Source: a virus (Duplodnaviria > Caudoviricetes). Taken from it: DNA of 64,000 nt. The stretch lies in IMG/VR virus record IMGVR_UViG_3300043078_000170. One strand, written 5' to 3'. Made by a program: the position numbers and the translations under genes. The notes under the pieces are model-generated. The model saw nothing but the letters and a program-made list of their open reading frames with translations. It was not told the DNA's origin and made no database searches. Of this stretch, positions 1,337 through 56,000 are shown piece after piece (the stretch's first letter is position 1; each line of letters starts with the position of its first letter).

Positions 1337-1346
1337 TTTTTTTAAG

Positions 1347-1363
1347 TATATATTATAGCTTTG
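1347..1363 (+). promoter_or_regulatory. Early-type phage promoter TATATATTAT-N5-TG (also at 4540, 11228, 14196, 28987, 63575 on + and 21533-21542 on -)
   Basis: Exact decamer plus TG at fixed spacing in 7 intergenic sites, each upstream of non-structural genes. Resembles the phiKZ-type early TATATTAC motif. Confidence 0.75.
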
Positions 1364-1414
1364 ATTATTAAATTATTTATAATCAAAATAAATATTATAA
1401 TGAGGTGTATACTT

Positions 1415-14249: not shown

Positions 14250-16931
14250 ATGATGAATAAAAGTAATCATTACAATGAAAATTCAATTAAGGTTTATGAA
14301 TATCCAGAAAATATTCAGAATAAACCAACTATGTACATCGGAAATATTGGAATGGAAGGTTGTACTCATTTAATTAGAGAATTAATGGATAATTCTATTG
14401 ATGAATGTTTAAATGGTTTTGGTAATAAAATTATTATTAAAATCTCTAATAAAAAAGGTTCTGCTTCAGTAGAAGATTTTGGTCGTGGTATTCCGCCTAC
14501 AGCTATTGAAAAAGCATTTTGTACGCTCCATGCATCAGGTAAATTTGATAATAATGAATATTCAGCGTCTGCTGGTACAAATGGTGTAGGAACTACTGCA
14601 GTAAATGCACTATCAAAATCATTTATTGTAGAAAGTGTTAGAGAAAATAAACATTATATTCAGAAATTTAGTAATGGTCTTCCAATTACTAAATTAAAAT
14701 GCACTGGTGATTCAGATAAATCATCTGGTACTAAAGTTTATATTGAACCTAATAAAGATTTTATGGAAGAAGTTAATTTTGATTTTGAAACTATTAAATT
14801 TGAACTTGAAACTAAGAAATATGTCTTAAAGAATGTAGAATTCATTTTAATTAATGAAGATACTAATGAAGAATTTAAGTTTCTTTCAGCTAATGGTATT
14901 GATGATTATATTAAAGATAACATTAAAGAATCAATATGTAGAACTATTAAAATCTCAAATGATGTTGAATTTAATAAAAGAAATAAAACATCTAAGTTTA
15001 ATGTAGAATTAGCTTTTTCATATGATAAGAAATCACGTATTAATATTATTTCTTTTTGTAATTCATTATTAATGAGAGAAGGAGGTATTCAAGAAACAAC
15101 TTTTAAAACTTCTCTAACAAGATTCTTTAAAAGCTATATAGAAAATAATAATCTATTAGCTAAAAAGGATGAAGGACTCTTAGATAAAATTAATGGTGAT
15201 CATGTAACTGATGGCTTAGTAGCTATTATTAGTATTAGACATCCTGATCCATTATTTGAAAATCAGACTAAGAATAAATTAAAGTCTAAAGAAATTGGAT
15301 TAATTTCTAAACTTATTTCAGAAGCTCTTGATAATTTTGCTAGTTCTAACACAAAAGATATAAAGAATATTTGTAATAAAATTATTATTAGCATTAAAGC
15401 TTATGAAGCAGCTAAAAAGGCTAGAGAGACCGTTCAGAAAAAAGGAGAAAATCAATTCGCTATTGTAAGTGATCTTTCTAAATTGGCTAATTGTATTTCA
15501 AAAGATACAGAAGTTAATGAAATATTTATTACTGAAGGACGTTCAGCATCTGGTACAGCAAAAGAAGCTAGAGATAAAAATACTCAAGCAGTTTATAGCT
15601 TAAGAGGTAAAATGCTTAATACTATTGGTATGGATACTTTAAAAGTTCTTGCTAATAAAGAATGTGCTGATTTAGCTTATATTTTAACAGGTATTAAAAA
15701 TGCCATCGATGATAATTTTAATATTGACTATTTAAAATATGGAAAAGTTATAATGTTATGTGATGCAGATGTTGATGGATATCATATTAGTATGCTTGGT
15801 CTAACTTATATATTTGAACATATGAGACCAATTATTACAGAAGGTCATATGTATATAGCTATTCCACCTTTATATTCTATTATTGAAAAAGGTAAGAAAA
15901 GATATTTTGTAGACCAGTATGAATATGACCAGTATATTTATGAAAAGATTCTTAAGAATTATAAATTCATTGAAAATAATAAGCCTGTTAAAACTATTAA
16001 GAAACTTACAAGAATATTTGAAGAATATGATAAGATTTCTAAATATATTGAAGAGATTGTCAATAATAATATTGGTGTTAGTAAGGAATTAATTTTTAGT
16101 CTTTTTAATTATTTATTAGATAATGATTATACTAAAGAAAATATTGTTAAATTTTTAAAAGGTTGTAATGATATTATTCTTAATGATAAAAAGTATGAAG
16201 GATTCTTTAATGAAAATTATGTATATTTTACGTTAAATAATATTATTAGTATTTTTAATAATATCTTTAAATATGCTAATGATAATAATATTTCATTCAG
16301 TGATATATATTATAATAATGATCAAAGTGATAATTATAATCCTTTTAATATCAGTGTTTATGATGAAATCATTTCAGCAGTAACTCCTAAAAGCAGAGTT
16401 CGCTTAAAGGGTAAAACCTATGCCCCATATAATAGTAATATTATATAGAAAACTCTTCTAAACAGGGAAACTCTTAATATTATAAATTAAGACAATCCTG
16501 TGCTAATAAAAATGTGCAACGACTATCGAAACCATAGACTATTAAAAATAGTTGATGAAGGGAGTAGAGTACCTCCAAGTGGCAGGGAAATGAAGAGCTA
16601 GTCCTAATTGAAATATTAGGCAGATGATATAGTCTCAACGAGTTTGAAATAACTCCTTCTACTGTGAAATTCAGTAGTCGTCTATAGTGATGTAGAGAAG
16701 TTCATAAGGGAACTGCATAAGATTAACGACCTTATGTGAAGGTAATTGTTAGGTGAAATGGATGCTAATGAATTAAGAGATACAACACTTGATAAAGAAA
16801 AAAGAAATATTTATAAAATTGAAATTCCAGATGTTAAAAAAGCAGAGGAATCAATGAATAACTTTATGAATGGTAATTCTAAGTATGTTGATTTTAGAAA
16901 GAATATACTTTTAACTAAACAGCCAAATTAA
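14250..16931 (+). CDS. gyrB: Type IIA topoisomerase (gyrase) B subunit; exons 14250..16412 + 16749..16931 (781 aa spliced)
   Basis: GHKL motifs ELMDNSIDE, DFGRGIP, GTNGVGTTAVNALS; TOPRIM EGRSA, LRGKMLN, DADVDGYHI. The conserved R.KG|LGEM is restored by splicing. Confidence 0.93.
16413..16748 (+). ncRNA. Group I intron (ORF-less, 336 nt) in gyrB
   Basis: 5' exon ends GGGU and pairs with IGS GCCC (U.G). ACCUA pairs with 3' exon UAGGU. Core AAUCCUGUGCUAA, CAACGACUA, GAUAUAGUCU. Terminal G. Confidence 0.93.
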
Positions 16932-16948
16932 GGAGGAAAATAAAATAA

Positions 16949-19450
16949 ATGGGAGTAATCAATATTAATTTAACAGATCTTCAAGAGGATTATATGATTA
17001 AATATATGAGATCTGTGTTAGAAGATAGAGCTATTGCAGATGTTAGGGATGGAATGAAGCCTATTCAAAGATATTGTGTTTGGGATGAATATAATAATGG
17101 TTGTCTTCCTGATAAGCCACATGTAAAGTGTGCTATGACCGTAGGAAGCGTTATTGGTAAATGGAGTCCTCATGGTGATGCATCGGCTTATGGTGCATTA
17201 ACTAGACTAGCACAAAACTTTTCAATTAATATTCCAATAATTGATGGACATGGAAATATGGGTAGTATTAATGGAGATTGTCCAGGTGCTTATAGATACT
17301 GTGAGTCGAGACTTTCAAAATATGGTTTATCATTATGTGATGATATTAATAATAATGCAGTAGATTTTGTTCCAAACTATTCTAATATGTTTCAAGAACC
17401 AACTGTATTACCTGCAAAGGTTTGTAATCTTTTAATTCAAGGTTCTTTAGGTATTGCTAGTGGTTTTGTTTCTTCAATTCCACCTCATAATATTAATGAT
17501 GTATGTAATGCTACTATAAAGCTTGTTAAAGAACCAGACACTGATGAGAATTATTTTGCAAGAACTCTTAAACCAGATTTTCCCACAGGAGGTATTATAT
17601 GTAATACTTCTGAAATTCAAAACGCTTATAAAACTGGTAAAGGTAATATTAAAATAAGATCTCATGTAGAAATTAAAACACATAAAAATGGAAGTAGCTC
17701 AATAATTATTAAAGATATTCCTTATCTTGTTACAATTGGTCCAAGAATTGTTCCAGGAGCTTCTAGCAATGATGATGGTGGTCTAATTAATAGTATTGTA
17801 AATAAAATTAAAGATAGTACTATTGATGGTATTTCTGATATTCAAGATCATTCTACTGGTATGGATATTAATATTGAGATAAAGATTAAAAAGGATTATG
17901 ACCCTAATGTAATTTTAGCTCAATTATATAAATATACTAAAATGGAATTCTCTTATAAGATTCAATTAGTTTGTCTTAATGATAAGAAGTATAGTTATTA
18001 TTCAATTAAAAAAATTCTTGAAGAATTCATTGAATTTAGAAAGAAGACAATTAAAAGAGTAGTAGTATATAATATCAATAAACTTAAGAGACGTATTCAT
18101 ATCATTGATGGTCTTATTATGGCTTTGAATGTAATTGATGATGTTATCAAAATTATTAAAAAGTCTAAGGATAAAAATATTGCTAGAGATAGTCTTAAAA
18201 AGAAACTTCCTAAATTAACTTTATTCCAGATTGATGCTATTTTGGATATGAAACTATCTTCTTTAACTAATTTAGAGATTAATAAACTAGTTGATGAGAA
18301 AAATGAAAAAGAAAATAAAGTTAAAGAATTGATTGAAGATCTTAAAGAAGAAAATATCTGTAAAAGAATTATTGATGAACAAAATGAATACAAAAAGAAG
18401 TATGGTTATCCATTAAGAACAGAATATCAAGATATTGATACTAATATTACTACTGAAGATATTATTGAAAAAGAAGATTGTGTTTTAGTATTAACTAATG
18501 ATAATTATATTAAGAGACTTTCTGCTGATAAATTTAAAACACAAAAAAGAAATACACAAGGTAATAATATAACTAATAGCGTTAAAGATATATTCTCAAC
18601 AAATACTAAAGATCATTTATTATGCTTTACAAATCTTGGAAGAGTATTTGATATTAAAGTATATAATATTAATGAAGGATCTATTAAAAGTAAAGGTATG
18701 AGAATTCCACTAAATCTTAAACCAGATGAAAAAGTTATTAAATTCTTATGTCTAAGTGATGAAAAGATTTCTGATCCTAATTCTTATTTAATGTTTGTTA
18801 CTAAAAATGGATTAGGTAAAAGAACTTCTCTAGAAGAATTTAAGAATATTAATAAAGCAGGAATTATTGCAATAGACCTCAAAGAAAATGATAAAATAGT
18901 ATTTGTTGGTTATATTGACAATAATAAAGATATTCAAGATATTATTATAGCTACAGAAAATGGATTAACTGTAAGATATGATAAAGAACAATTTAAACCT
19001 ATTGGAAGAACTACACAAGGTAATGTAGTTATGAAATTATTAGACGATGATCATATTGCAAGTGCTTGTATCATTGATGATGAAAATGATAAGATATTCT
19101 TTATAACACAGAATGGATTAGGTAAAACTACTTTGGTAACAGATAATGTTAAAAAGAAAGATCCTAATACTAAAAAAGAAGTAATCATTAATGATGGTTT
19201 TCCAAGACTTAAAAGAAGTGCTACAATTAAAGGAAGAATTGGTATAACTCTTAAAAATGATAAACTAGTAGAAATTATTCCTATTCATAATAATGATGAT
19301 ATTAAAGATATTATAATTACAACTAAACAAAAAGTTTTAACAATTAGCACTGAAGAATTCCTAGAGCCATTAAAAAGAGCTACTATGGGTAAGAAATTAA
19401 TTAATATTAAAGATGAAAATGATTTTATCGTTAATATTGCACTCAGATAA
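16949..19450 (+). CDS. gyrA: Type IIA topoisomerase (gyrase) A subunit
   Basis: RAIADVRDGMKPIQR, SPHGDAS, AYRYCESRL catalytic Tyr, C-terminal beta-pinwheel repeats; degenerate GyrA box QKRNTQG. Confidence 0.93.
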   Translation: MGVININLTDLQEDYMIKYMRSVLEDRAIADVRDGMKPIQRYCVWDEYNNGCLPDKPHVKCAMTVGSVIGKWSPHGDASAYGALTRLAQNFSINIPIIDGHGNMGSINGDCPGAYRYCESRLSKYGLSLCDDINNNAVDFVPNYSNMFQEPTVLPAKVCNLLIQGSLGIASGFVSSIPPHNINDVCNATIKLVKEPDTDENYFARTLKPDFPTGGIICNTSEIQNAYKTGKGNIKIRSHVEIKTHKNGSSSIIIKDIPYLVTIGPRIVPGASSNDDGGLINSIVNKIKDSTIDGISDIQDHSTGMDINIEIKIKKDYDPNVILAQLYKYTKMEFSYKIQLVCLNDKKYSYYSIKKILEEFIEFRKKTIKRVVVYNINKLKRRIHIIDGLIMALNVIDDVIKIIKKSKDKNIARDSLKKKLPKLTLFQIDAILDMKLSSLTNLEINKLVDEKNEKENKVKELIEDLKEENICKRIIDEQNEYKKKYGYPLRTEYQDIDTNITTEDIIEKEDCVLVLTNDNYIKRLSADKFKTQKRNTQGNNITNSVKDIFSTNTKDHLLCFTNLGRVFDIKVYNINEGSIKSKGMRIPLNLKPDEKVIKFLCLSDEKISDPNSYLMFVTKNGLGKRTSLEEFKNINKAGIIAIDLKENDKIVFVGYIDNNKDIQDIIIATENGLTVRYDKEQFKPIGRTTQGNVVMKLLDDDHIASACIIDDENDKIFFITQNGLGKTTLVTDNVKKKDPNTKKEVIINDGFPRLKRSATIKGRIGITLKNDKLVEIIPIHNNDDIKDIIITTKQKVLTISTEEFLEPLKRATMGKKLINIKDENDFIVNIALR

Positions 19451-19463
19451 AGGAGAGATTAAT

Positions 19464-19628
19464 ATGAAATCTGTTGTTATTGTAAGATCTGAAGACACTA
19501 AAACAATTTATGGTGTTTTTGAAAATGATGAAAAAGCTGATGAGTATATTAAAGATTTAACTAAAAATAATCCAAATCTTTTTGATGAAAATAATAGATT
19601 ACAAAAGATGCACTGGTCTGTAAGATAA
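19464..19628 (+). CDS. Small hypothetical protein (54 aa)
   Basis: AAGGAG RBS before ATG 19464; IYGVFENDEKA motif. Confidence 0.7.
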   Translation: MKSVVIVRSEDTKTIYGVFENDEKADEYIKDLTKNNPNLFDENNRLQKMHWSVR

Positions 19629-19640
19629 AATTTTTATATG

Positions 19641-19736
19641 TTCCCTTAGTATATATTAAATATACTAAGGGAATATTTTTTTTTTGTAAAATATCGAAAA
19701 AAAAAATCCCTTAACTATTTTTAAATAGTTAAGGGA
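19641..19736. terminator. Pair of terminators between convergent units
   Basis: Hairpins at 19641-19673 (T run after) and 19707-19736 (A run before). Confidence 0.75.
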
Positions 19737-19746
19737 AATTTATTAA

Positions 19747-21471
19747 TTATCTTTCATAATAGAATACGAAGTTACCACAATCATAAATTTTGAGATAACC
19801 AGCTTCTCTCATAATTTGGAATTCAGTTTTATCATCAGAATAAATATCTGGGAACTTCTTTTTAAGTTCTTGCTTTCTAAATCCAAATCTATTATATTTC
19901 TTTATATTATTTTTATCAATATAGAAATATGATGGAGAACTTGTATGATCTAATCTAAAATTATTTTTCAAATAAAGATTTCCATCAGACCATCTTCTAT
20001 CAGCATATGTGATAATTCTATTCCATTCAAAATTTCTTTCAAAATATTTAAATAATTTACTAAAACCACCAATTACACAAATATCTCCTTCAGTAGCATA
20101 TCTTGAAAGTTCATAATCAAAAGCAGTCTTATCACTCTTTTGTCCTAAAGAAAGTCTAGGCTTACAGAATGTCATAACTGCTACTAAAGTATCTTCACCA
20201 TTATCTTCTGGATACCAAAGACCAAGTTTAATACTTGCACTATCAGTTCCTTGAATATGATTATCTTCTAAAAATACCTTTTTAGCAGGTGCAGTAATCT
20301 CTTCAATATAACATTTTCTTGCAAATACCTTTCTACCAACATGCTGAGTCATATACTTTAATTTTCTTTTAACAATATCTTGCTTATTTACCCATTCATC
20401 TTCAAATAAATGAATAAGTCTTATACCATTTTTAACTGCTAATTCAGTTTTCTTAATATGATAATCCTTTGGAACAAAATCTTCTGAATGCCAATAAAGT
20501 CCATCAAATTCAATTCCAATTTTATAGTCAGGAAGATAAATATCTATTTCCTGTTTATTACCAAGAATTGTTCGATCATTTCTTGAGATATTTTCAACAC
20601 CAATAGATTTAAGATAATCACAAATATCATCTTCATATTTAGATTTACCCATATTAGTGTTACATTTAGGGCATCTTTCAATAGTCTTATTATCTCTAGT
20701 ATATGGATGAAGAATATCTACAGGTCTTACTGACCATTCATGACCACACTTATTATGTCTAATTTTTACTTTTTCTTTATTACTTGAATAATTACTTAAT
20801 AGAGTATAATTATCTCCTAAAGCTTCTTGGAACGTTTCATTTGTATATTTTTCTGATTTATAACAATTTGAACAACCTTTACCAAGTAATAAATTAGAAG
20901 GTGTTGCTTCAAATAATTTTCCACACTTAGTATGATATACTTTAATCTTAGTATTATTATCAGTATAAGGCTGTTTTAATAATACTTCATACTCTTCACC
21001 TAAGACTTCTTCAACTCTTGCTTTAAGTGTCTTAATTCCAATTTTATGCTTTTCAGCACCTTGTTTCTTAGAACATTTAGGACATCTTCTATTATTAAGA
21101 AAACAATCTGGTCTAACATCATATTCTAACCCACAAGTATTATGTTTCATTTTAACCTTGGTTGTAGTATTAACGAAATCACTTAATAAAGTATATTCAT
21201 CTCCAACTAAATCAAATATTTCCTTTTTAAAGCTTTCAGTTGTTCTATTACGATTTTTAGGTTTTTTAGCATTTTCTCTATTTGCAATAGCTCTTGCACA
21301 TTTAGGACATCTTTTTCCTGCTAAAAAGTTAGTAGGAGAAACGTCATATTTAAGTCCACAATCTTCATGTAATATTGTAACTTTATTATGAGTTCCAGTA
21401 TATTCGGATAATAATTTATATCCTTCATTTTCTTCAACCTTTTTTCTAAAGCTTTCAGTATCCCAACGCAT
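19747..21471 (-). CDS. Free-standing Hef-like homing endonuclease: Zn repeats + PD-(D/E)XK nuclease + Mom/GNAT-like C-terminal domain
   Basis: Four H..CG...CPKC repeats; EIDIYLPDYKIGIEFDGLYWH; NHIQG, YELSRY, IITYADRRWSDGNLY, IYDCG. Confidence 0.75.
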   Translation of the reverse strand: MRWDTESFRKKVEENEGYKLLSEYTGTHNKVTILHEDCGLKYDVSPTNFLAGKRCPKCARAIANRENAKKPKNRNRTTESFKKEIFDLVGDEYTLLSDFVNTTTKVKMKHNTCGLEYDVRPDCFLNNRRCPKCSKKQGAEKHKIGIKTLKARVEEVLGEEYEVLLKQPYTDNNTKIKVYHTKCGKLFEATPSNLLLGKGCSNCYKSEKYTNETFQEALGDNYTLLSNYSSNKEKVKIRHNKCGHEWSVRPVDILHPYTRDNKTIERCPKCNTNMGKSKYEDDICDYLKSIGVENISRNDRTILGNKQEIDIYLPDYKIGIEFDGLYWHSEDFVPKDYHIKKTELAVKNGIRLIHLFEDEWVNKQDIVKRKLKYMTQHVGRKVFARKCYIEEITAPAKKVFLEDNHIQGTDSASIKLGLWYPEDNGEDTLVAVMTFCKPRLSLGQKSDKTAFDYELSRYATEGDICVIGGFSKLFKYFERNFEWNRIITYADRRWSDGNLYLKNNFRLDHTSSPSYFYIDKNNIKKYNRFGFRKQELKKKFPDIYSDDKTEFQIMREAGYLKIYDCGNFVFYYER

Positions 21472-21589
21472 AATTTTATTACTCCTTTAATAAAAAATAT
21501 TTTTTGTAGTTTATCAATCTAACTACACTATAATAATATATAGTTATAGTTGGTTTTAAAATTTTTTAATTTATAGTTGGTATAAATTT

Positions 21590-22696
21590 CTAATTATATT
21601 TATTAATAATATCTTCTAATATTATTTCTAGATTATCAAAATCCTTATAAGATATTCGATATAAATCAATATTATGATCTTTACAATATTGATCTTTAAT
21701 TTCATCTCTTTTCTTTTGCATTTCTAATTTCTTTTCACCATATATATTTTTATTATGAAATTCTCCATCATATTCTATTAATATAATTTTTCCTGTATCA
21801 TCTTCTAGCTTAAAATCAAACTCTAATGTTCTTTTATATTTGCAATCTTTTAAACCTTTATAATGCCAAATATATTCATAATCATTTGAATCTAACCATT
21901 TAGCTATCTTTTCTTCTCCTAATGAAATTCTACAATGTGGACATCTGTTTCCATTTAAAAAATCATCTGCAGTTAATGTAAAAATATTATTACATTTTTT
22001 ACATAATACTTTTATTTTATTTTTTCGTTTAGTATATTTAGTTAATATTTCATAATTATTAAAAGTATCTTTTGGTAATTTCTTTAAAAATTCTTCATGT
22101 GTTAATGTATGCTTTTTAGCTCTTTGTTTTAAAGAGCATTTAGGACATCTTCTCTTTTTATTTAAGAAGTTGTCAGCAGTTGTTTCAAATATATTATTAC
22201 ATTTATTGTGTTTAATTTTTATTTTAGATTTATTATTAATATATTCATCACTTATTAATGAATATTCATTACCTACTTGATTTTCCATATCACTTCTTAA
22301 GGATTCTATTGTCTTTCTTTTACTTGGATGAGAACAATATGGACATCTATGATTATTATTAAAATTAATAGGTGTCATTTCAAATTCTTTATTACATTTA
22401 TTATGCTTAAATTTAACTTTAGTTTTATTATTAATATACTCAGATATTAATTCATATTCGTTATTAGTAATATTTTTTACTTTTTCTTTATACATATCAG
22501 TATTCATTATATGATTAGAACAATAAGGACATCTATCTCCTTGAATAAATCTATCAGGTCTTACTCTATAAGTATTATTACATTTATTATGCTTAAGAAT
22601 AACTTGTGTTTTATTATTAATATATTCTGATTGTAACTCATACTCATCATTAGTAAGATTTTTTAATTTGTCTTTAAATGATAAAATAATTATCAA
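21590..22696 (-). CDS. Free-standing Zn-repeat PD-(D/E)XK (Vsr/DUF559-like) endonuclease
   Basis: HNKC...RCPYC repeats; LEFDF..IEYDGEFH...RDEIKDQYCKDHNIDLYRISY. Start codon is uncertain. Confidence 0.8.
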   Translation of the reverse strand: MIIILSFKDKLKNLTNDEYELQSEYINNKTQVILKHNKCNNTYRVRPDRFIQGDRCPYCSNHIMNTDMYKEKVKNITNNEYELISEYINNKTKVKFKHNKCNKEFEMTPINFNNNHRCPYCSHPSKRKTIESLRSDMENQVGNEYSLISDEYINNKSKIKIKHNKCNNIFETTADNFLNKKRRCPKCSLKQRAKKHTLTHEEFLKKLPKDTFNNYEILTKYTKRKNKIKVLCKKCNNIFTLTADDFLNGNRCPHCRISLGEEKIAKWLDSNDYEYIWHYKGLKDCKYKRTLEFDFKLEDDTGKIILIEYDGEFHNKNIYGEKKLEMQKKRDEIKDQYCKDHNIDLYRISYKDFDNLEIILEDIINKYN

Positions 22697-22746
22697 CTCC
22701 TATTTAGTATTTAAATAATAGTTTTCCAATTATAAAAAATAAAAAT

Positions 22747-22773
22747 TCCCTAAGACTTAATAAGTCTTAGGGA
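22747..22773 (-). terminator. Terminator after RNAP beta-N gene
   Basis: TCCCTAAGACTTA-A-TAAGTCTTAGGGA. Confidence 0.75.
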
Positions 22774-22778
22774 TTTAT

Positions 22779-25700
22779 TTAAGATTGATATATATCTTTT
22801 ATTTGACGTTTTAATTCTATTAAAGCTTTCGAAGCGTAACCGTCAATAAAGATGTCTAGAGTCATACGGCTGTTTATACTTAAAGGACTTAATATAGCTT
22901 CTACTGGTTCTTCTGGTCTATACTCAGAATATGGTTCTTCACCTTTTTCTAAAACCTTTGAAACAATAGTTTTAAGAGCCGTTCCGTATATAATTTTATC
23001 GCCTATACCTAACTCTTGGTAATATTCTATAAAGAATTCAAACATTACACCATCTATTACATCTTCACCTTTAATTTTATTTTCAGTTTGTTTTTCAATA
23101 ATAGGAGCATTTAAAGAATCATAACCTGTTCCTTTTATTTTTTCTATAATAGCTTTTCTAGATTTTTTTGCATTAATATAAGATTTAATTACTTTTTGTA
23201 AACTTTCTGAATATTCTTCAATATCATTAGTATAATAAATATTTACTTTAGTAACTACACCTGTATATTTACACTTTAATTCATTTTTAGCCATCTCGGC
23301 AATATTGGCTGCAAATTCATCACCAATTTTACCTAAGATATCATTCATAGATTCATCATTAAATGAATTTTCAAAGATTAATAAAGGTTCATTAGTTTTA
23401 ATATTTTGACCTTCTTTAGCTACAAAACTTACTGTAGCATTTTTATCAAGAATCTTTGTCTTTCTCATAGTAACTTTAGTAGCTAAGCCTTCAGATACTT
23501 TATCAGTAACAATAGATGAGTCTTCAAGAGTAAAATCTGCTGAAGCAATAGCTACTTTAGTAGTTCTACCCATACAATATATAATATCATCTTTTTTACC
23601 ATTACCAACAAAGAAATTAGGATTCTTTGCTATTACAGCACCTTTATTGAATTTTTCTCCAGGTGTATAAAGCATTTCAAATTGCTGTGAGTTATAAAAA
23701 CCACCATTACTATTGTTGGTTTCAACTATATCTAAATCAATTAAATCTTGTTTACCAGATTTATATTTAAGAATAGCTACTTTATTTTTCATATCAACAG
23801 ATTCTACTACACCATCTTCTTTTGCTTTAAATGCAAATTCATCAGAAATCATATAAGGAGCAGTTTTTTCCAATCCAGAACTAATTAATGGTGGTGTCTG
23901 ACCCAATACTGATACAATATGTTTCTGCTGTACAGATTGCATAGAAATACGAGGAGCATCTGAGTGTGTAGTTGTTGATGGATTCATTAATTCTGAGAAG
24001 TCATATTGAGTTGTAGAGCCATTTCCTTTAGCATTACTTGGATCTACAAAACCATATATATTAGTAATTTTAGGATTATAAGTTAATTGTCTAACAATAC
24101 CAACCTGATTTCCTTCAGGAGTGTTAAGACTAATTAAATTCTTCATATTTTCATTATAACCACGAGTTCTTGTAGTGTAAGCTTCCATTTTAATAATTGG
24201 ACTATATCTTCATCACTAAATGATGCCTTCCATTTCGGGTAAACCATAAAACCCTACTCTACTCGCTTCGTGTAAATATTTCAATTTACCTTATTTTTAA
24301 CTAGTTTATACTAGTATATTAGCTTTCGATAGTCTCTGAACTCATATCCTATCTTAGTAGGATACTTCGCTGCATCGATTGGACTTAAAACTTAATCTTG
24401 TTACTATACCTAAGTCTGTTAAACTTCGCCACTAATTATATTACTATCTTAGTTTAGTAATTAAGTTCGTTTAGTCTTTCCTGCAATTAGGAAGGTTTAT
24501 TTTTACAATGTCAACAAAGCTTACTTGTTTAATATTATTTATTATAATTATAAATTTCATAATATTTATTTTTATTATACATAATGTCATCTTCACTATC
24601 ATAAAATAACATATTGTATTTATTAATAATAGCTAAAACATCTTCTTCTTCAGCTATATATTTTATTAAATTTTTAATTTCATTTAGATTTAATTTATAT
24701 GGAATTCTAAGTAAATTTATTTTATTATTTTGACAATATTCATTTTTAACTAAATCATTTTTACGAGTATTTTCAAATTTATTTATTTTTCCACTTGAAA
24801 AAGAATTTTTATCAAAATGTTGTTGTCCATCATACTCAATTAATAAATTATATTCTTCTAAATAAAAATCAAATCTTAATTTAAATTTTTTACCTTTTAG
24901 ATCATCATAAGATTTTTCCTTTGTAAATTTTATTTTATTTTCATTTAAAAGATTTTCAATAAATATTGAATTTTTTGAATTATTATAATCTATTTCACAA
25001 GGACATCTTTCTCCTTTATAAATAAAATTCTCAGGATAAATCATATATTCACTTTTACATTTTTCATGATAAGATTTTACTTTAGTATGCATTGTAGTAA
25101 ATTTACCAATAATTTTATATGAAGGATCTAATTCATTTATTTTATTAACAAACTCTTCATGAGACATTTGGTATTTACCAGAACAATAAGGACAACCAAA
25201 ATATTTTTCTGGATATTTATTAGTCTTAACATTTCTTATTAAAATATGTGGTTCAGCTTTAAAATTTTTGTCGCATACATTGCATTTAAAAGTAGTTTTT
25301 GAATGCGTATTTTTAAAATCTCCTATTAATGTTAATTTACCATTAGTTAATAATTTTAATTTATCTTCTACATTTTTCTTTGATTTACTTATATCTGATT
25401 GTCTTCTACACTTAGGACATAAATCTTCTAAAAAACGTTTTCTTACTCTTTCTCTAGTAAATTCATTAGGAAAAGTTTCAAAAGTATTTCCACATTTAAT
25501 GTGTTTAATAGTACATTTTGTTTGTCCTGATTCAAAGTTAATTAATTTAAATTTATTTCCATATAAATTTAATATATTTTCTTGAAATTTTTCTTTGGTT
25601 AATTTTGGATTACCCATAATACTAACAACTCCTTTAAATTTATTAAAGGATTGTTAGGAATCAATTTATTTTTAAATTTATGGTTTTAAGAATTTTTATT

Positions 25701-28700
25701 GACATTGATCCCAGCAAGCCCCTTCATTGAAGCAGTGCCCATTCTCTCTAACAATTATTACTAATTGGACTATATCATCTTCTATAATAATTTATAGAAG
25801 CCTTGCACTTCGGACATATTATATCCTACTCTACTCACTTCGTGTAAATATTTCAATTTACCTTATTTTTAACTAGTTTATACTAGTATATTAGCTTTCG
25901 ATAGTCTCTGAACGTTCTTCATTTTATTATGAAGCTTCGCTGCTAGATTTCCCATTATTACAATACTTAGATTTTCATCATATATCAATTTAATTATTTT
26001 TTCCGTCTTTCGACTGCATTCACACTTATCTTTACAGATTATGTTGTAGCTAATTAAATATTAGGGTTTACAAGCAATTCACAAGGTTATCATACATTAT
26101 TACTAATATATGAGAGCTAATTACTCAAGAGATGGGTTTAAACTTGAATAAGATTCAATTGTTTTTAATTCCATTAATTTCTTAGTTAGAATATCTGGAT
26201 CAACAGTTATCTTGACTGGGTTTTTAGCATGTTTAGAGTCTTTATAATGCTTAAATGAATCAGCCAATACTTTATAAAGCATAGCAGGTACTTGTTCTGC
26301 ACCACGAATTCTAAAATTATTTACATCAGTTGGTTCAGAGAAAGAAATATCTTCTAATAATGTATTAGCATATAATAAAACATCATAAACATTAGTAGGT
26401 AAATTTAATTCTTCCAGTATATCTTTAGTAATAGGATCTATTAATAAAGAAATTGAGTTATGAAATCCCTTTGCAGCATTTCTTGAATTAAATGCATCAC
26501 CAAAATAATCAATATAAGGATCTGGTGAATTCATATCTGCAAACACTATCTCAGAACAGTTCATTTCTAATAAACCTGAAAGAAGCATACTGTTTCTTAT
26601 CTTAGAAGTATCATAATAAAGATAACCATCTTTAAATTTAATTTTACCTAAATCATCTTGTACGCTTAAAGATCTATTGGTAGTTTCAAAAGTATACATG
26701 ACTTTATATCTATCTAATAAATTTAATAATCCTAATTCATATCCTAATAAAACAGCTAATGGAAGTGTTTTATTATTAATTTCCATTCTAGAATATGTTA
26801 ATTTAGTATTAGTTTTAATTTTAGCAGAAGTAATATCTTTAACCTTTTCAGTTGTATTATTATAAACTAATTCAACAATCCATGAAGATAAAGTAATATC
26901 TAATGGCTCATATTTACTACCATTATATAAATAAATCTTTTTATCAATAATATTTGATAAAATTAATTTACTTTTATCTTTAGTATACCCTACCATGAAA
27001 TATTCTTTTTTATCAAAAGTTGCTTTAACAGCAATTTTTTCATTATATAGAGGTTTCTTAATATCCATAATATCTTGGATTTCTTGTTGATTAAAAATAA
27101 ATATATAGTTTTCAATATTTAAACTATATAAATAAGATGAAATATCATTATATTCAGAACTTACAGTATATTTACCATTATTCTTTAATGAATTACCAAA
27201 TTTAAAATCAAAAGTAGAACCTTGTTTTTTATATTTTAAAAGATTTTGCTTAGTAAATAAAGATTTTAAATAAGTAAGCTTTTCACTAAATTTCTGTCCA
27301 AATCTTGTTATAAAGTGCTTATTATAGTTTGTAGTAATTTGAACTCTATCTGGTTCTAATTTAACAATTGGTAAAAAAACTATCTGTTTCATAATTACCT
27401 TTTTAGAACCATTTACATACATAAATTTTCCTTCTTTAATTTCTGGCATATTTACTTTAAATTTATGTGTAACATTAGTATCATCTTTAAATTCTACTTC
27501 AAGGAGTTGTTGCTTGTTCATATCAGTATTATTAGATTTTAAATTAATCTTATTAACATATACACCAATATCATTATCATCATTAAATGATTTAAGAACT
27601 TTTGCAACATCTTTATTAAACTTTTTTTCCATATAAGTATCATCATAATCTTTTAATGTACTTGTAAGGATTTCTTTATTAGTAATATCTTTAATATTAC
27701 CATCAGATATTTCTTTAGTATCTATTTTTTTATTTTCATAATTTTCTTTAAGATCTTTTAAAGAAACATCATTAAACATAATTTTTTCTTGTTGTATTTT
27801 TAATTGTTCTGCATTTTTTCTACGATCCCCATCTAATTTATCCTGCTGAACTTTTATTAAAGTATCTTTAAAAGCTTTATCATTAGTCATTAATTCCATC
27901 ATTTGTTCTTCAGTCATATCAGTATCTTGATATTCATCAACAACTTCTTCAATTTTTTTATCTACTTCAGAAATATTGTCATCATCTTCATTAACAGAAA
28001 TACCAATTTCTTCAGCCATTTTTTCTTTAATATTATTTTTAGTAATTTCTTTTTCATCTGCTACAACATTCTTTGAATTAACTTTTTCTATAAAATTACT
28101 TGAAGGAGTATTATTAGATACTTCATTTGTTTCAATACCTTCTTCAGATTTTATAACTTCTTCTAATTCATCAGAACTTAATAATAAATGATTAATTCTA
28201 ATATTGAATTTTTGTTTATTTTTATAAAAATCATCATCTACTGTAAATTTAAAGAATGTTTTATTCTTAGCAGATAAGAATATAAATTGTACTCCTTTAA
28301 AATACTCTAAGAAATAGTCAACTCTTTTCTTAATTGCAGTTACAAAATAATAGAGAAAACTTGTATTATCAGTAGCATCCATTCCATCTACATTAAATAC
28401 AATAGCTTTATAATCATATTTAAATTCATTATATTTAACATTAATTTCATCAAAGAAATCTTTCATTTTTACTAAAGGACTCTTTTTAGTAGACTCTTGA
28501 TTAATTAATAAATAAGGTGTCATATCATAAAATAAATTAAGATTTTTATAGCTACTTATATTTTGTCTACAAAGTAAATTATAATTTACTTTTTCTAAGA
28601 ACTCTTTATAATGATTTGACTGATTAACCATTTTTCTTATTTTTTTATTATCTGAAACTAATAATCTTTCTCTATAATAGCTTTTATAATAAGCTGGCAT

Positions 28701-45210: not shown

Positions 45211-45242
45211 TAATTAAATTTAAATTGAAGGGAGTAATTAAT

Positions 45243-46718: not shown

Positions 46719-46779
46719 ATAATATTAAAAATTATCAACTTTTAATTATTAATAAAAAAGAAAGGTGTGAATTTAAATT

Positions 46780-47367: not shown

Positions 47368-47383
47368 TAAGGAGGTAATTAAA

Positions 47384-48598: not shown

Positions 48599-48604
48599 AT
48601 AATT

Positions 48605-49534
48605 ATGAAAGAGATGATTAATATGAATTATATAATTAAACAATATAAAATCCTTTCAGAATGTTATAGTAACCCTAATTTTTCAACTAAAGTATATTTA
48701 AGATTAATTAATGAAAATCCTAATTTAAATATTAGTCCTGAAGATTTTGATTGTATGATAGATGATATGTATAATAATTTTCTTAATGAAAATGCAGAAT
48801 ATATTGATGAATTTTTTTACTATAATGAAGGATTTTTTGGAAATATTGCTAAAAAAACTAAAAATATGGCTGGAAAAACTAAAAATAAATTTAGTGAAGT
48901 AAATCAAAAAAGAAAAGAAAAAATGGAAGAAAAGAAAAATGAAAGAAAACAAAGAAAAGAAGAAAGAAAAAATACTAGCAAAAAAATTAGTAAATCCGCT
49001 TCAAATATTGAAGAAGTTACAAATACTGCTAAAAGTGTTGCTAACAAAGCTGATAGTACTATGGATGATGTAAAAGGTGTAGCTTCTAATGTTAAATCAG
49101 CTACTGGTAAAGTAAATAGTGCTATGGATGATGTAAAAGGTGTTACTAATAAAGCTAATAATACTATGACTAATGTTCAGAATGCTTCTTCCGATGTTAA
49201 GAAAGTAACTAGAGATGCTGCTGAAATAACTAATGATGTAAATAAACGTTATAAAAATGCTACAAAGAAAATAGACAATACTAAGCAAAAGATTAAGAAA
49301 AATGGTAAAAAAGTAGCAATAGGTGGTGCTGCTGTAGGTGCTACAGCAATTACTGCTAAAATTATTTTAGACAAAAGAGATAGAAAAAGATATAATGAAT
49401 GGAAGGCTAAACATAAATCTAAAAGAGAATTAGTTACATTTAAACAATGGAAAGATTTAGGAAAGCCATTAAATGAAGATTTCATTCAAGGTTATAATGA
49501 TGCTATTGAATATTTAAATAATTTAGATTATTAA
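48605..49534 (+). CDS. Putative internal head protein with amphipathic repeats
   Basis: MDDVKGV repeats; FLNE/YYNE sites; C-terminal EDFIQGYNDAI motif. Confidence 0.6.
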   Translation: MKEMINMNYIIKQYKILSECYSNPNFSTKVYLRLINENPNLNISPEDFDCMIDDMYNNFLNENAEYIDEFFYYNEGFFGNIAKKTKNMAGKTKNKFSEVNQKRKEKMEEKKNERKQRKEERKNTSKKISKSASNIEEVTNTAKSVANKADSTMDDVKGVASNVKSATGKVNSAMDDVKGVTNKANNTMTNVQNASSDVKKVTRDAAEITNDVNKRYKNATKKIDNTKQKIKKNGKKVAIGGAAVGATAITAKIILDKRDRKRYNEWKAKHKSKRELVTFKQWKDLGKPLNEDFIQGYNDAIEYLNNLDY

Positions 49535-49578: not shown

Positions 49579-52500
49579 TTATTTATTAAGATTCTTTAAA
49601 GCTTCAATTGTAGAATCTGGAACAGTCATATCATTATCAATACCTGCTGATAATAATAAAGTACTAACTGTATTTAAAGTTTGTTTCTTAGAAATATCAT
49701 TTGGAAGATCTTTCATATATACATAACCTTGCTTAGATATTTCTTTATACATATAAGCTTTAGCATCTGCGCTATCTGCTCTTGGACCTAAAAATTCTTT
49801 TAAGCAAATAGGATCTTCTTTATATGATAATAAAGAATAGGACTCTGAATCGCTGATTCGCAATATCTTCACTTAAGTTCGCTAATTCTTAAGCAGTTCT
49901 CTTATGAACTTCTCTATGTTTCCATAGAAGTTGAGACTATATCTTCTTTAGATTTACGTTTCCATTTAAAAAGGAATTACTGAATTATTACTTCAAACCT
50001 CTACCCAATAGCTTGGCTGTACTCTACTTCCTTCGTGTAAGTATTTCAACTTACCTTATTCTCTATATTATAGAGTTATATTTATTATTTGGTTTCGATA
50101 GTCGTTGAATTGATTAAATTTTCTAAAAACTTATAAATAATTCAATCAACTGCTGATTGCCCAATCCTTTATAAAGGCTCTAAGGGTGTTCCAGCATTTG
50201 TAAATTTTTAAATCGCCCGATATGTTAAGCGATTTTATCATCTGATGTAACCTGACCCGTTTTCATATTACGTTTATTTATATCTAAACTATAAGTATTC
50301 TTTTTGCTAAGCATCTGCTGTGTTGATAGGTAACTTTTTGATATTATCTTCAAGTTTTCCCCCAACCCAAACCGTACGTGAAAGTTTCCCTTCATACGGC
50401 TTTCCATCAATAAATTTAATTTATTGACTAAGAACCTTCCCTCCATTACTTATTATCATAACTTCATAGGTACTATGTTCTTTCCGACTTCTTATATCAA
50501 TTATAAATATAAGATCTCAAACGTTCCATTTTAGATAGGTTTATAATTGTACTTAGGTTTCATCTATAGCTATTTAATATCGTTTATAGAAATATATTAA
50601 CCCATTAAATATATTAGAATTTGAGGACTACTTCTCTCTTTCCTATTAAAAGCCTTCATAAATGATTCGTGTTCCTAACCATATACAATTCCCTAACCGC
50701 TTCATTATAAAAAGCGACTTCACTCAGCTTCACACAAAATATCACTACTTTGCATGTGAGATATTATTAATAGCAATACAGAATTTTATTATGGGTAATT
50801 CTAGCTTATTCTCTAAAATAGTTTTACGTTTCACACGTAGTCTTCTTAAGTTTATATATAAAATAGGAACTTTATATCTAGTTCTTATTGGATTTTCTTC
50901 ATGACCATCATGTCTATAATAAAGATATTCTTCAGTAGGAACTTTAAGATAATCTAAAGCTTCTTTACAATCTTTAATTCTAGGACAATTTTTATTAGGT
51001 AATACTTCAAGATAAAAATTCTTCTTATCATCTAAAATAAGATCTTTAATATATTTATCAAATTTCTCATCTGACATTGATTTAAATAAGTTCTTATACT
51101 TTTGAGTATTAGCACCTGTTTTATCTAAAAGATCAAAGACTTTATAAACTTTTTCTTCAATTTGTTTTCTTTTATTAGCATTAATAGCTTCATTTAATAC
51201 TAATTGATCTTTATTAGATTCATTAATACTTTCAAATAAAGTAAAAGGTAAATCAGGATTGTCAATTTTTCTATATTCATCAGTTGCTTCTATTTTATCA
51301 GCTAATGAGAAATTTCTACATTCTATTCTTAAATCAGTTATATTTAATTTTCTTTTAACATAATTAATCATAGCTATTTCAATTCCTTGAAGCTTATAAT
51401 CAGAACTAGCTTCTAAAGCTACAACTGTTTTAATGGTTCTATTTAAAGCAGTTTGTAAATTATAAATTTTATCTTCAATTATAATATATCCTGCTATATT
51501 TTCATTACTATCAATAAACATAAAACCATGTTGATTTCCAGGAAGTTTTTGACAATTTCTTAATTTATAATGTGTTTTACCATATTTGAATAAATTCTGT
51601 GGTGTCATTTCTTTAATATCAAATTCAGATATAATACTATCTTTGAAATCTTGCTCATCTTGAACTGTATTAGTATAAATAAAGTTTTCTTTTTGTTTAT
51701 TATTTAAATCTATTAATCTAGTTAAGAATTCTTTATTATCTTTAGAATTATTCAAAATAAACTTTAAAACACTGTCAGTTAAACCCTCAATAGTAATAAA
51801 TAGATTATCATAATTATCTTCATTATAAACTTCATTTAATACACTATACATATCTTCAATAGAATCAAATTCATTAATACCTTTCATTATATTATCATTA
51901 CATTCAATGTAATATATAGAATCTTCTATTTGGAATGTAGGAATTAATGAAGTGGTTTCACCTAATGAATATACATTCATTTTAGGATTATATCCTAATT
52001 CATATAGCTTATTAAATACTGAACTAGATCTTTGTGCAGCTATATTTAATCCAACAGCATTTGGAGCTATTGCACCTTCTTTAATAATTGAAAAATAATC
52101 ATAGACATCTTCATAATTATTAAAATCAAAATTTTCTAATAAAGGACTTTCATCATTATTAATATATTTATCTAAGAACTCTTTAGAAGTTAAATAAATA
52201 TCTATTCTATTCTCTCCATACCTTTCAAAATTTAAATCCTTTTCAATTGATTGGAAATTTAATAATCTAGTATCATAATCAATTATATCAATATTAGGAA
52301 CATGAATTAATTCAAAGATATGTAATAAATAATTTATAGCTGCATATTCATAATAAGTCTTTTTAACTTTAATATCATCTAATAAATTCCAATTAATAGA
52401 ATTATATAATGAAAATAAATCAGAAATATCATAAGAACTACTAAACTCTTCAAGATTTCTTAAAAATCTTTCATAAGTTTCATCTGGAACAATTTTGTTA

Positions 52501-52985
52501 CATACTTTTATTCTATAATCTTTTAATACTGGATTATTATCTTTATCAAAATCTTGTAAGATGTTTTTATAAGAAATTTCAGTTAATTTAAACTTTAAAC
52601 AATCTTTAACATCAGGAACTATACCAAAAGTATTATTAATATAATCATTATCCCATGTAATACAAAGATTAGTAAGTATATTCATATTATTAACATTTTT
52701 AAATATAGGAACTACACTTAATACATGATAAGATCTATTATTATTCCTAATAAGATAATTTCTATTATAACTTTGAGAGAATGGTAATTTATCTTGTACT
52801 GATATAAATGAATCATAATGAATAAAATCATCAGGATCATTTAATTTAGGAATATCAAAATAATTTTTAATACGATTTGATTCAGCATAATTTAAATGGT
52901 CATTACAAATAGGACAAGGTGTTTCCAATAATGAACCATCAAATATAGAATTACACGTATTACATTTACAATATAAGTATCCCAT
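49579..52985 (-). CDS. Split RNA polymerase beta subunit, C-terminal part, with ~600-aa N-terminal extension; exons 52985..50837, 50319..50228, 49860..49579 (~840 aa)
   Basis: Joined VPILYINLRRL|QQMLSKKN...TGQVTSDDKIA|RISDSESYSL...LKEFLGPRADS resembles beta VGYMYMLKLHHMVDDK...TQQP...QRFGEMEVWAL...LQEMLTVKSDD. GAGGTG RBS before ATG 52985. Confidence 0.85.
49861..50227 (-). ncRNA. Group I intron (ORF-less, 367 nt) in RNAP beta-C
   Basis: P1 AAAUCGCU/GGCGAUUU (U.G); core AAUCAGCAG, CAACGACUA, AAGAUAUAGUCU; 3' domain nearly the same as in the gyrB intron; terminal G. Confidence 0.92.
50320..50836 (-). mobile_element. Group II intron, ORF-less (517 nt), in RNAP beta-C
   Basis: Starts GUGUG. Domain V AGCCGUAUGAAGGGAAACUUUCACGUACGGUU; domain VI ends AC. 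EBS1 GUAGUC (50626-50631) in a stem-loop is complementary to exon end GACUAC. Removal restores the frame (CTA C|AG CAG). Confidence 0.92.
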
Positions 52986-53037
52986 AGTTATATTCACCTC
53001 TTTTAAAAAATATAAAATATTGTTGACGTGCAAATAA

Positions 53038-53069
53038 AATCCTAAAGAGTTTTAAAACTCTTTAGGATT
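53038..53069 (-). terminator. Terminator (32-nt perfect palindrome) after the giant virion gene
   Basis: AATCCTAAAGAGTTTTAAAACTCTTTAGGATT. Confidence 0.75.
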
Positions 53070-53075
53070 AATTTA

Positions 53076-56000
53076 TTACTTAATAAAATCAATATTAGTT
53101 GAAATATTTTCTTTTGTTGTTGAGCTTAAATCAATTTCTCTAATACCACCAGCAAATGAAATTTTAACTAAGTTATTTGAAATTACAGTATTTTTTAATA
53201 AGTCATTATAAATATCATGTAAATTATATGTTGTATTATTAAATGTAAATTCTTTATCTTCAACATTTAATGTATCATAATAATCTTCAGCTAAGATAGT
53301 TACTGTATCTGAAAATGAACGATAACCTTTCTTTTCATTTTCTTTCATCCAACCATTAATTCTATAACCTACAATTTTATTGGCAGTACTATCATAAATA
53401 ACGCCAAATAATCTATAAATAAATGAGAATCTATTTAAGCTAGACGTTTTAAGTTTATCATCATTTTCTTTACTAATTATTATATTAGTTGTAGCGTTAG
53501 GGATTGTTCTAAATTGATTTGTATTAGTATATTTTTCATTATAGTCATATACATTTCTAATATTAATATAATAATTACTATTTTTATTAGTTATATCACA
53601 ATCTTTTAAGAATATAGTATTAGTGTCTTTTAATAAATAATTATCTTCGCTATCTGTAAAATCTTTTATAGGATAATTTGCGGAAATATCATATAATGTT
53701 ATACCATTATAATTCTCTGCATTAAATCTACCTCTAGGGTTTTCCATACCTAACATTCCATAAGCAATACAACCAAATCCGTCTAATTGATAGGAAGTAG
53801 CATAATTTAAAACTGAAGGCGTTAAAGGCTTTGAAGTATTATCTTTATTTACTAATTCATTAAAATCACTTTCATTTAAACTTAAAGTACCACAAACATC
53901 ATCTGGATCATCTGGATTCTTTTCAAATTTTCTACCTTCATAGAAATGACAGAAATTTTTATAATTGCTTTTATACTTTGAGTTTGCTAAATCTTCAAGT
54001 GTAGTATCTAATAATATTCTACTAGCTCCATTATATCCATATCGATACATATATGAAATATTATCTTTAAATATTGGATTATTAATTGAATTATCTACTA
54101 CATCTGAAATTAATTCTTGAATAGTTTCATTAAATAAAGCAATTTTCTTACCAGATCTCTCATAATTAGACACATAATAACCTGTGTAATCATCATTATC
54201 AAAATCTAAATTAAAATATTGATAACCATCAATAAAATTTCTAGAAGGAATTTCGTAATCAATATTATCTATATTTATATTTCTCATTTTACTTTTTACA
54301 GTAGCTTTAAATAGATATAAATTTTTATTTGCATATTCTGATTCATTATCACTAAATTTATTCTGATTAAATTTAATAATATTTAAATCTTTAATATAAT
54401 TTTTAAATATTTCTTTTTTAATATCATCATCATCTGTATAATATCTATCAGGAAATGCATCTAAGCTTTCAGTTTTAGTTCTATGATATTCATTCGTAGA
54501 AAATTTTGGTACATTTTCAGTACTACTTGGCAAATATTTTTCAACTTTTAAAGGATCTATATACCAATATTCATTAGATCTTTTTCTTTCATCGCTATAA
54601 GTGCTACCAGCTATTTTATTTTCATGTATAGTAGCTAATACGCTATCAATATTATTATAAGTATTTTTAGCTCTTAAATAAAGAGAATTTAAAGGATCAC
54701 CATCATAAGTAAAATTATTATCTGGATTAAAATCTTTTAAACTATAAATAGTAAATGTATAATTATTATCTTTTTCATAAGTGTTGTCATTCTTTTTATA
54801 TGTTTCTAAAGAATCAAAATAAAGTTCAGAATCATTCATTGTTAGAGTAAAATAGTTATTACCAGTAAAGTTATCATCTTTTTCATGTAAATATGGTAAA
54901 TCACCAACTTTACTATATGGACTTTCTATACGTTTATTTGAAACAGTTGAGATATTTTTATATTTTTGTTTATTACCTCTTGCATTCCAGTTAATTTTCT
55001 TTCTAACTTCTTTAAATTCATCGTTTGTTCCATGATATATTATATTAAATGCATCATTATAAATAATATCATTAATTTCAACTGCAATAAGACTGTTCCA
55101 ATTTACATATGGTTTATTTACATCATAGAATTTTTCAATATATTTTACATTATTATCTTCAATTGAAAAATCACTATCATCTTTTATTAATTCACCTAAA
55201 TCAATAATACTATCTTCTGTATAGTCACTATCTATTGAGTATAAATGATTATTATTAATTCTTAATTTACCACAATTTATAAAGTTATTATCTGAAATAA
55301 TATATAATTTATTACCAAACTCAACATTTATTAAAGATATACAATTTTCACAAACTTTAGAAACATTAGAAGCAGTTGTTACCATTACTTTTTCAGCATT
55401 ATAACCAGAGTTAACATATTCTAAATAATAATCTTTAAATTTAGTTACCAATAATGTACTATCTTCTCCATTGTTATATATTTCAGGTTTTTCTTCTATA
55501 ACACTTTCAATGTAATCTATATATTCATTATAGTCTGTATAACCATCTCTTTCATAGTATATATATTTAGGATCAATATAATAATCTTCACCATCTACTT
55601 CATCTTTATTTTCTTCATAAATATCAACCATTTTACCATGAAAATTTTTATCATCATGATTATAATATAACCAACCAGTTTTACAGTTAACATAAATTGC
55701 ATGGTTTCCTATATAAGTACCATTAAAGCAGCTAGTCATAATTTCATAAGCTTTTCCATCAATATTAACACGATAACCACTTTCAATATCAGAATCTTTA
55801 TAATAATAAGCAAGATATTTTTTATTATTATAATTTATTATAAAAGATTTAACTCTAGGATCAACATCCATAGAACTTTGAACGTTTTCTACAAAAAAGT
55901 TACCAAAATATATAACTTCTGGTAATAATAAATTCATTAATCTACTACAACCGGAAAAACAGCTATAACCTATTGCATAAGCATTGCCAGTATCTATAGT

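Follow-up and report, generated by a model that had tools for sequence, protein, structure and literature searches.

A putative class IIB group II intron without an open reading frame in an uncultured AR9-like jumbo phage, inserted in the gene for the virion RNA polymerase subunit beta-C

The IMG/VR record IMGVR_UViG_3300043078_000170 provided a stretch of 64,000 nucleotides (hereafter the window) from an uncultured AR9-like jumbo phage with extremely AT-rich DNA (25.4% GC). Its minus strand carries, in three exons, a gene for a C-terminal beta-like subunit of RNA polymerase (RNAP), beta-C. We analysed the two introns between these exons: a group II intron without an open reading frame (ORF), which is the main subject here, and a group I intron downstream of it (Table 1). 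A preliminary description made from the letters of the window had placed a 517-nt intron with a GUGUG start and an AC end at 50320-50836. The intron is present there on the minus strand, and its boundaries are matched by an intron-less allele in a close relative.

The gene was identified from its first exon. Residues 557-731 matched two PHROGs, 'RNA polymerase beta subunit' (E 1e-15) and 'hydrolase' (E 5.9e-45), and tblastn with the C-terminal 140-175 residues found one gene in AR9, PBS1, BpSp, LPJP1, Staphylococcus jumbo phages and phiR1-37. In AR9 the homologue, BI022_gp077, carries the annotation of a virion RNAP subunit with a fused HD hydrolase domain, and its coding sequence is joined from three pieces; the same fusion has been described for the C-terminal beta fragment of the virion RNAP of Bacillus jumbo phages (PMC7598289). 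The virion RNAP beta-C gene is an essential phage gene. The listed start of the exon 1 ORF is a TTG at 53033, and an ATG is present at 52985. The PALS_2 equivalent of the region after the intron aligned weakly (E 0.2-0.9) to residues 1272-1315 of Escherichia coli beta (EMEVWALEAYGA...SDD), and direct searches of PDB sequences for the intron site on E. coli beta gave non-significant matches only (E 0.2-0.9). From a manual alignment we infer that the site would lie near E. coli beta residues 1237-1243 (LNHLVDDKM motif). Because positions 45225-49534 of the window had zero blastn matches in the phage collection, the phage is only distant kin of the cultured AR9-like phages.

Exon 1 ends in ...AAC UUA AGA AGA CUA C and exon 2 begins with AG CAG AUG CUU AGC. 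The intron between them reads from GUGUGAAACG at 50836 to ...CCUAUCAACAC at 50320, with GUGUG at 50836..50832 and AC at 50321..50320, in agreement with the group II boundary consensus GUGYG/AY. A CAG codon is split, one base coming from exon 1 and two from exon 2, followed by Q M L S K K, so that the RRL-QQM stretch of beta-C is interrupted as the preliminary description had said. The Rfam model RF00029 (Intron_gpII, domains V and VI) matched 50404..50320 with 66.8 bits (gathering score 40, E 5.9e-11), and the match ended on the last intron base. This score, together with the AGC triad, the two-base bulge and the GAAA loop, bears out the canonical domain V that had been noticed before. The perfect pair of exon-binding site 1 and intron-binding site 1 (EBS1 and IBS1) was likewise found, as was the absence of an encoded maturase or reverse transcriptase (RT): the longest sense-strand frame inside the intron has 43 codons, and domain IV is a bare 8-bp hairpin.

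Table 1. Intron, exon and site features of the beta-C gene (positions in the window; arrows mark insertion points; for intron sites the carriers are given)
Feature	Coordinates	Strand	Details
Group II intron, ORF-less, predicted class IIB	50320..50836	-	517 nt, GUGUG...AC
IBS1, GACUAC	50837..50842	-	Last six bases of exon 1; pairs with EBS1
EBS1, GUAGUC	50626..50631	-	Perfect 6-bp complement of IBS1
Domain I	50519..50831	-	Stems I(i) 50831-50825/50525-50519 and I(ii) 50821-50812/50535-50526, conserved AACU between
alpha, ACCC	50793..50796	-	Loop of IB-like hairpin; pairs with alpha' GGGU 50600-50603
AAGC four-base bulge, stem IC (epsilon'/lambda region)	50727..50730	-	Class IIB signature, flanked by two covarying helices
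Domain ID arm	50545..50690	-	Basal helix 50690-50677/50559-50545; 100% paired, 5 compensatory pairs
Domain II	50490..50514	-	8-bp hairpin, 7 compensatory pairs
gamma, G in J2/3	50485	-	Pairs with gamma', the last intron base C50320
Domain III	50430..50482	-	Helices in covariation alignment
Domain IV	50406..50428	-	23 nt, 8-bp hairpin, ORF-less
Domain V	50369..50402	-	AGC triad 50401-50399, two-base bulge, GAAA loop
Domain VI	50322..50366	-	Bulged putative branch-point A at 50327, 8 nt from 3' end, unpaired between two covarying helices
Exon 1, virion RNAP beta-C-like gene	50837..53033	-	732 codons + 1 nt
Exon 2	50228..50319	-	92 nt, encodes (Q)QMLSKKNTYSLDINKRNMKTGQVTSDDKIA; G001 copy identical
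Exon 3	49579..49860	-	Encodes RISDSESYSLLSY...NLNK and stop; beta C-terminal 'GEMEVWALEAYGA...SDD' region
Group I intron	49861..50227	-	367 nt, ORF-less; P1 AUCGCU/GGCGAU, U.G pair at 5' splice site
Site A, group II			RRL↓QQ; window, PALS_2, S6, LPJP1, L036, L032, L037, L052
Site B, group I			KTG↓Q; G001 (L013 ~1035-1435, minus strand), L024 (3520-~4990), AR9 (L004 3479-~3809)
Site C, group I			KIA↓RIS; window only
Near site C, group I			Two nearby sites; L036, L032
Site D, group I			GPRA↓; AR9, L037, L084
Upstream of site A, group I			KVPVG↓, ~7 codons upstream of the group II site; L037 (~1400-1430), L087 and L089 (just after 2812/2818)

Covariance models for domains I-IV had been proposed as a check. 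In a permissive regional search the Rfam D1D4 models matched the window intron in the expected 5'-to-3' order, all below threshold: D1D4-5 with 30.6 bits at 50826..50686 (gathering score 34.5; E 1e-4 locally), D1D4-3 with 22.8 bits and D1D4-1 with 18.4 bits. A complete lack of such matches, the refuting condition of the preliminary description, was only marginally escaped. The introns of relatives described below gave 38-45 bits with these models, above threshold. The identity of domains I-IV is supported by homology and covariation, which link them to relatives whose domain I scores pass the threshold.

The intron-less allele was found in G001 (IMGVR_UViG_3300043094_000076; 134 kb), the nearest record, which shares 65% of the sampled words of the window. 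Its beta-C gene is 99% identical to that of the window, the group II intron is absent and the exons are joined as AGACTAC↓AGCAGATG, the sequence across the site reading uninterrupted ...AAGAAGACTACAGCAGATGCTTAGC.... Window positions 53100..50837 align to G001 and the alignment then continues directly from 50319 onward. The sole uncertainty is a 2-nt AC at the junction, which is resolved because the canonical ends are GUGUG...AC. Since a 99%-identical relative joins the exons precisely at the intron boundaries, chance can be ruled out. In a second relative (L024/L083; 81% amino-acid identity) ...RRLQQMLSKK... is also uninterrupted. Between window and G001 there are zero differences within the 163 nt upstream of the insertion site and in all of exon 2, and the rest of exon 1 is ~1% divergent; no co-conversion tract is visible in this comparison, and the pattern is uninformative on gain versus loss of the intron.

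Seven orthologous introns occur in the same gene and codon phase, in PALS_2 and S6 (Staphylococcus phages), LPJP1 (Listeria phage) and the metagenome contigs L036, L032, L037 and L052. Those of PALS_2, LPJP1 and S6 were obtained by blastn of the intron against the phage collection, as full-length homologues immediately after the homologous exon 1 (73-74% identity over 78-91% of the query; PALS_2 74% over 91%). The copies in L036, L032, L037 and, truncated, L052 came from a scan of metagenome contigs for a domain V pattern, followed by nhmmer (full-length matches). All eight introns, that of the window included, lie at the identical position and phase, ...(R/K)R(L/M/V) C↓A(A/G) CA.... Their lengths are 517 (window, the shortest), 545, 562, 581, 626, 773 and 1918 nt, and the window intron is 67-72% identical to the others in pairwise comparisons. 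Nine further IMG/VR relatives of the gene lacked this intron (0/9). From the eight carriers at one site and these nine relatives we conclude that the group II element is sporadic and tied to a single site. Scans of IMG/VR for exact patterns of two conserved domain I blocks gave zero matches, and two further domain V pattern matches in IMG/VR were rejected as unrelated introns of the RT type. Rfam (gathering and E-value thresholds), blastn and nhmmer revealed no further group II intron in the window, and the matches in G001 were at chance level only.

The window copy differs from its relatives in domain I. A module of two hairpins (58-70 nt), which follows the 5' strand of stem I(i) and precedes the invariant AACU, is present in all five orthologues with a complete 5' end (PALS_2, LPJP1, L036, L032 and L037); in the window only AA is left at this place. 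The module is a trait of this family and does not define group II elements.

We examined covariation in an alignment (A2) of six introns (window, PALS_2, LPJP1, L036, L032 and L037) extended by 30 nt into the 5' exon and by 10 nt into the 3' exon. Nested helices were taken from RNAalifold on A2 and are hence biased towards this alignment, while three tertiary pairings were added by hand and not derived in this way. Standard pairs made up 94.5% of the cells, compared with 38-46% when partners were slid by 1-3 columns. Changes on both sides occurred in 102 of 186 pairs, and none of 500 shuffles reached the observed values. The window intron forms 161 of the 165 consensus pairs.

All three added pairings covary. 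For EBS1/IBS1, the window and LPJP1 have GUAGUC/GACUAC (the 6-bp pair of the preliminary description), PALS_2 GUAGGC/GUCUAC, L036 GUAGCC/GGCUAC, L032 GCAUAC/GUAUGC and L037 GUACUC/GAGUAC, with compensatory changes at three positions across the six orthologues. In alpha-alpha', ACCC/GGGU alternates with ACCU/AGGU (C-G in three sequences, U-A in two). The gamma-gamma' pair is G-C in the window and L037 and A-U in the other four, and the 3' end is AC, not AU, because gamma is a G that pairs with the terminal C. In the basal helix of domain ID, UAUGG/CCUAAG, which we take to be a GAAA tetraloop receptor of the 11-nt type and a candidate zeta, faces the GAAA loop of domain V. A candidate for EBS2, UUUUAA with UUAAGA, was rejected: its columns form a well-covarying helix and the register is not conserved among the orthologues. 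For EBS3, a candidate pair would join the U of AACU to the first base of exon 2, an A; both positions are invariant.

The four-base bulge AAGC (AARC) in the epsilon'/lambda region assigns the window intron to class IIB by its sequence, the AARC bulge being the published IIB criterion (PMC12350094). The same Rfam models had been applied to phage genomes by Merk, Jones & Eddy (NAR 2025; PMC12350094). Their Table S1 lists in PALS_2 (MN091626; 50111..50691) an ORF-less class IIB intron in 'viral RNA pol beta', and in S6 (191615..193532) a class IIB intron that bears a homing endonuclease gene (HEG); LPJP1 (MZ422438; 164479..163854) has an ORF-less IIB intron in the RNAP beta-C gene, for which a trans-acting RT was proposed (PMC12350094). 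The same study describes RNAP genes that hold both group I introns and group II introns with a HEG (PMC12350094), and the intron-rich RNAP genes of AR9-like phages had been noted in the literature before it. The preliminary description, which had reported an ORF-less group II intron in a phage RNAP gene, was thus right on the identity of the element, while its implied rarity and novelty do not hold, as a family at this site is already on record (PMC12350094). The intron family at the RNAP beta-C site was published in 2025, and the window intron is a further member of it, not a new kind. What is new here is modest: the exact natural intron-minus allele, the shortest member of the family, covariation for three tertiary contacts, the downstream group I intron and a map of an intron hot spot.

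With the PALS_2 and LPJP1 introns the window intron shares gene, site and phase, 72% nucleotide identity over domains I-VI, the GUGYG start, the AGC triad, the AAGC bulge, the lack of an ORF and the covarying EBS1-IBS1. It differs from both in being 64-109 nt shorter, without the two-hairpin module, and in ending in AC instead of AU with a compensating gamma G; a group I intron follows it 92 nt downstream, which those two phages lack. The S6 intron has the same site and ribozyme family and differs by a 436-aa homing endonuclease of CapR/DUF4379 type in domain IV. In the same jumbo-phage lineage, AR9, PBS1, Internexus and MarsHill have class IIB introns too (Merk et al. 2025); these interrupt split genes for multisubunit RNAPs, are in part ORF-less and occur together with group I introns in their genes. 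They differ in gene (virion RNAP beta'-N) and site, have a CGC and not an AGC triad and show local similarity only. The group I introns of AR9 BI022_gp077 interrupt the same conserved stretch of the same gene, but they belong to another ribozyme class with other chemistry and lie at KTG↓Q and GPRA↓.

ORF-less group II introns of bacteria, for example in the Bacillus cereus group, probably use a maturase in trans. Like the window intron they are ribozymes without an intron-encoded protein; they differ in sharing their genome with RT-encoding sister copies, none of which was found in the window or G001. The search for an RT, a maturase or sister copies that the preliminary description had suggested thus came out empty in these 64 kb and 134 kb: no RT or maturase was found in the window, where the group II RT of LPJP1 had no tblastn match, and PF00078 had no match in G001. 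PALS_2 and S6 carry one RT each, which is free-standing; that of PALS_2 is of the retron type (PADLOC RT_II-A, E 3.6e-39). For PALS_2 and S6, the list of Merk et al. contains no group II intron with an RT gene (PMC12350094). The free-standing RTs have ~455-511 aa and lie at 24879-26381 in PALS_2 (L082 1380-2882), ~168180-168818 in S6, and ~184285-184920 and 179667-180230 in LPJP1; no homologue of them was detected in the window or G001. As candidates for a trans maturase the free-standing RTs of PALS_2, S6 and LPJP1 were rejected, since they are retron-type and have no maturase domain match and no homologue in the window. Three ORFs of the window, all on the minus strand (19747..21471, 21590..22696 and 24535..25617), are homologous to the HEG of the S6 intron, which is of CapR/DUF4379-Vsr type (up to 32% identity, E 9e-34); two of them seem to stand alone, and the third falls within a group I intron region.

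The group I intron downstream of exon 2 gave 48.3 bits with Rfam RF00028 (Intron_gpI; gathering score 50, E 2.9e-11 locally). It had been missed in the Rfam run over the whole window, probably owing to speed filters. Exon 2 ends with ...GAU AAA AUC GCU and is followed by a stop, and the frame resumes at 49860. G001 lacks exactly 50227..49861 and reads GATAAAATCGCT↓CGAATCAGC, which fixes the group I boundaries. The spliced RNA is predicted to have the junctions AGACUAC↓AGCAGAUG (group II) and AAAAUCGCU↓CGAAUCAGC (group I). Blastn found similarity to the group I core at 16517-16744, 24255-24340 and 25827-25912 of the window. These core-like stretches lie in ~16413-16748 (plus strand), 24186-25707 and 25744-26129 (both minus strand), between pairs of ORFs that resemble split genes; an Rfam E-value search of 16300..26300 gave no group I match despite this similarity, again probably owing to speed filters.

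A different group I intron (~400 nt) is present in G001, 27 nt upstream of the group I site of the window, at ...ACGGGT↓CAGGTT; two near-identical phages thus have different introns within the same 120 nt. Judged from the mapped insertion sites, two ribozyme classes share a hot spot in the last ~70 codons of beta-C, with six or more sites, at least five of them besides the group II site (Table 1). The site B intron of L024 holds a multi-repeat HEG of CapR type, and in L037 a micro-exon of ~20 nt separates a group I from the group II intron. Genes for giant virion proteins adjoin the RNAP gene. Directly upstream, on the minus strand, lies an ORF of 3478 aa (53076-63512), of which only the first ~600 residues match a PHROG ('virion structural protein') and which has zero Pfam matches.

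Taken together, these findings make it likely that the window holds a functional, lariat-forming, ORF-less class IIB intron, one of a family fixed at a single site in the virion RNAP beta-C gene of AR9/PBS1-like jumbo phages of Firmicutes. In unspliced RNA, translation would stop 30 codons into the intron, and it is reasonable to assume, as had been proposed before, that splicing is necessary, either alone or with a factor acting in trans. In the proposed mechanism, domain I would fold as a scaffold held by alpha-alpha' and by the contact of the GAAA tetraloop of domain V with its receptor, and EBS1 (50631..50626) would keep the end of exon 1 in place. In the first step, A50327 of domain VI would attack the 5' splice site behind C50837 with its 2'-OH; in the second, the released exon 1 would attack the 3' splice site after C50320, which gamma-gamma' (G50485-C50320) would position, and the CAG codon of ...RRL-QQM... 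would be restored. The group I intron 92 nt downstream would have to be spliced too, giving a protein of ~840-856 aa. Splicing would most likely proceed without a cognate maturase, by self-splicing or with general RNA chaperones of the host. The patchy distribution of the intron would be explained best by exchange at the DNA level between co-infecting relatives, possibly aided by homing endonucleases.

Several points weigh against this reading. Most IIB introns need a protein cofactor under physiological conditions. The domain I-IV scores of the window intron are below the gathering scores, and EBS2-IBS2 and EBS3-IBS3 could not be assigned with confidence. Loss of the two-hairpin module could, in principle, impair folding of the window copy. 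The search for an RT covered 64 kb of this genome and 134 kb (~52%) of its relative G001, and LPJP1 encodes a group II RT in another intron. Finally, the support for the exon junction is at the DNA level, from the G001 allele.

Splicing without a cognate maturase is favoured because the family persists in phages without a group II RT. The intron could instead be functional and dependent on a group II RT or maturase in trans, supplied by another intron elsewhere in the phage genome or by an intron of the host, as Merk et al. proposed for LPJP1; we consider this possible but doubtful. LPJP1 has one RT-encoding and three ORF-less related introns, which fits such a dependence, and the alternative keeps its weight because the RT search reached only part of this genome. 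Class IIB introns in general usually need their intron-encoded protein in vivo. No RT was found in the window or G001, however, and in PALS_2 and S6, where the orthologous intron is also present, the sole RT is of the retron type and has no maturase domain match. A more specific proposal is that of a naturally minimised, maturase-independent IIB ribozyme that self-splices in an essential late gene under physiological conditions and passes from one jumbo phage to another as DNA only, through recombination or with endonucleases acting in trans. We put this forward tentatively, as more doubtful than not. If true, the 517-nt copy would show that the two-hairpin module of domain I is dispensable, and it would offer a small natural IIB model for structural work and engineering.

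It is very improbable that the window copy is a decaying, non-splicing remnant for which the domain I deletion was fatal, with beta-C a pseudogene or expressed as separate fragments. This idea draws on the missing module, which is conserved in the other copies, and on Rfam scores for domains I-IV that are lower than those of the relatives. All catalytic and tertiary elements are nevertheless intact, and nearly all consensus pairs form; the G-C pair of gamma-gamma' is compensated and EBS1 matches its own exon perfectly. Moreover, the exons are in frame and share 99-100% identity with the intron-less allele, exon 2 with its 30 codons lacks a start codon, and the AR9 homologue is a virion RNAP subunit. 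That the insertion arose as a chimera or artefact of assembly and is foreign to the phage genome is hardly credible. The absence of the intron from the nearest record would fit this reading, but orthologous introns occupy the identical position in cultured phages (PALS_2, S6 and LPJP1) and in four independent metagenome contigs, and both borders coincide exactly with canonical splice sites, to which EBS1 is matched.

General knowledge of group II introns is unchanged by this find. With the window, an uncultured and very AT-rich jumbo phage joins the few phages in which group II introns are known. Beyond what the 2025 survey reported for the site, it contributes an intron-plus/intron-minus pair of 99% identity that fixes the splice junction, three covarying tertiary contacts and a shortened variant that may mark a dispensable module. 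The hot spot in the beta-C gene provides material for studying how self-splicing elements choose conserved targets.

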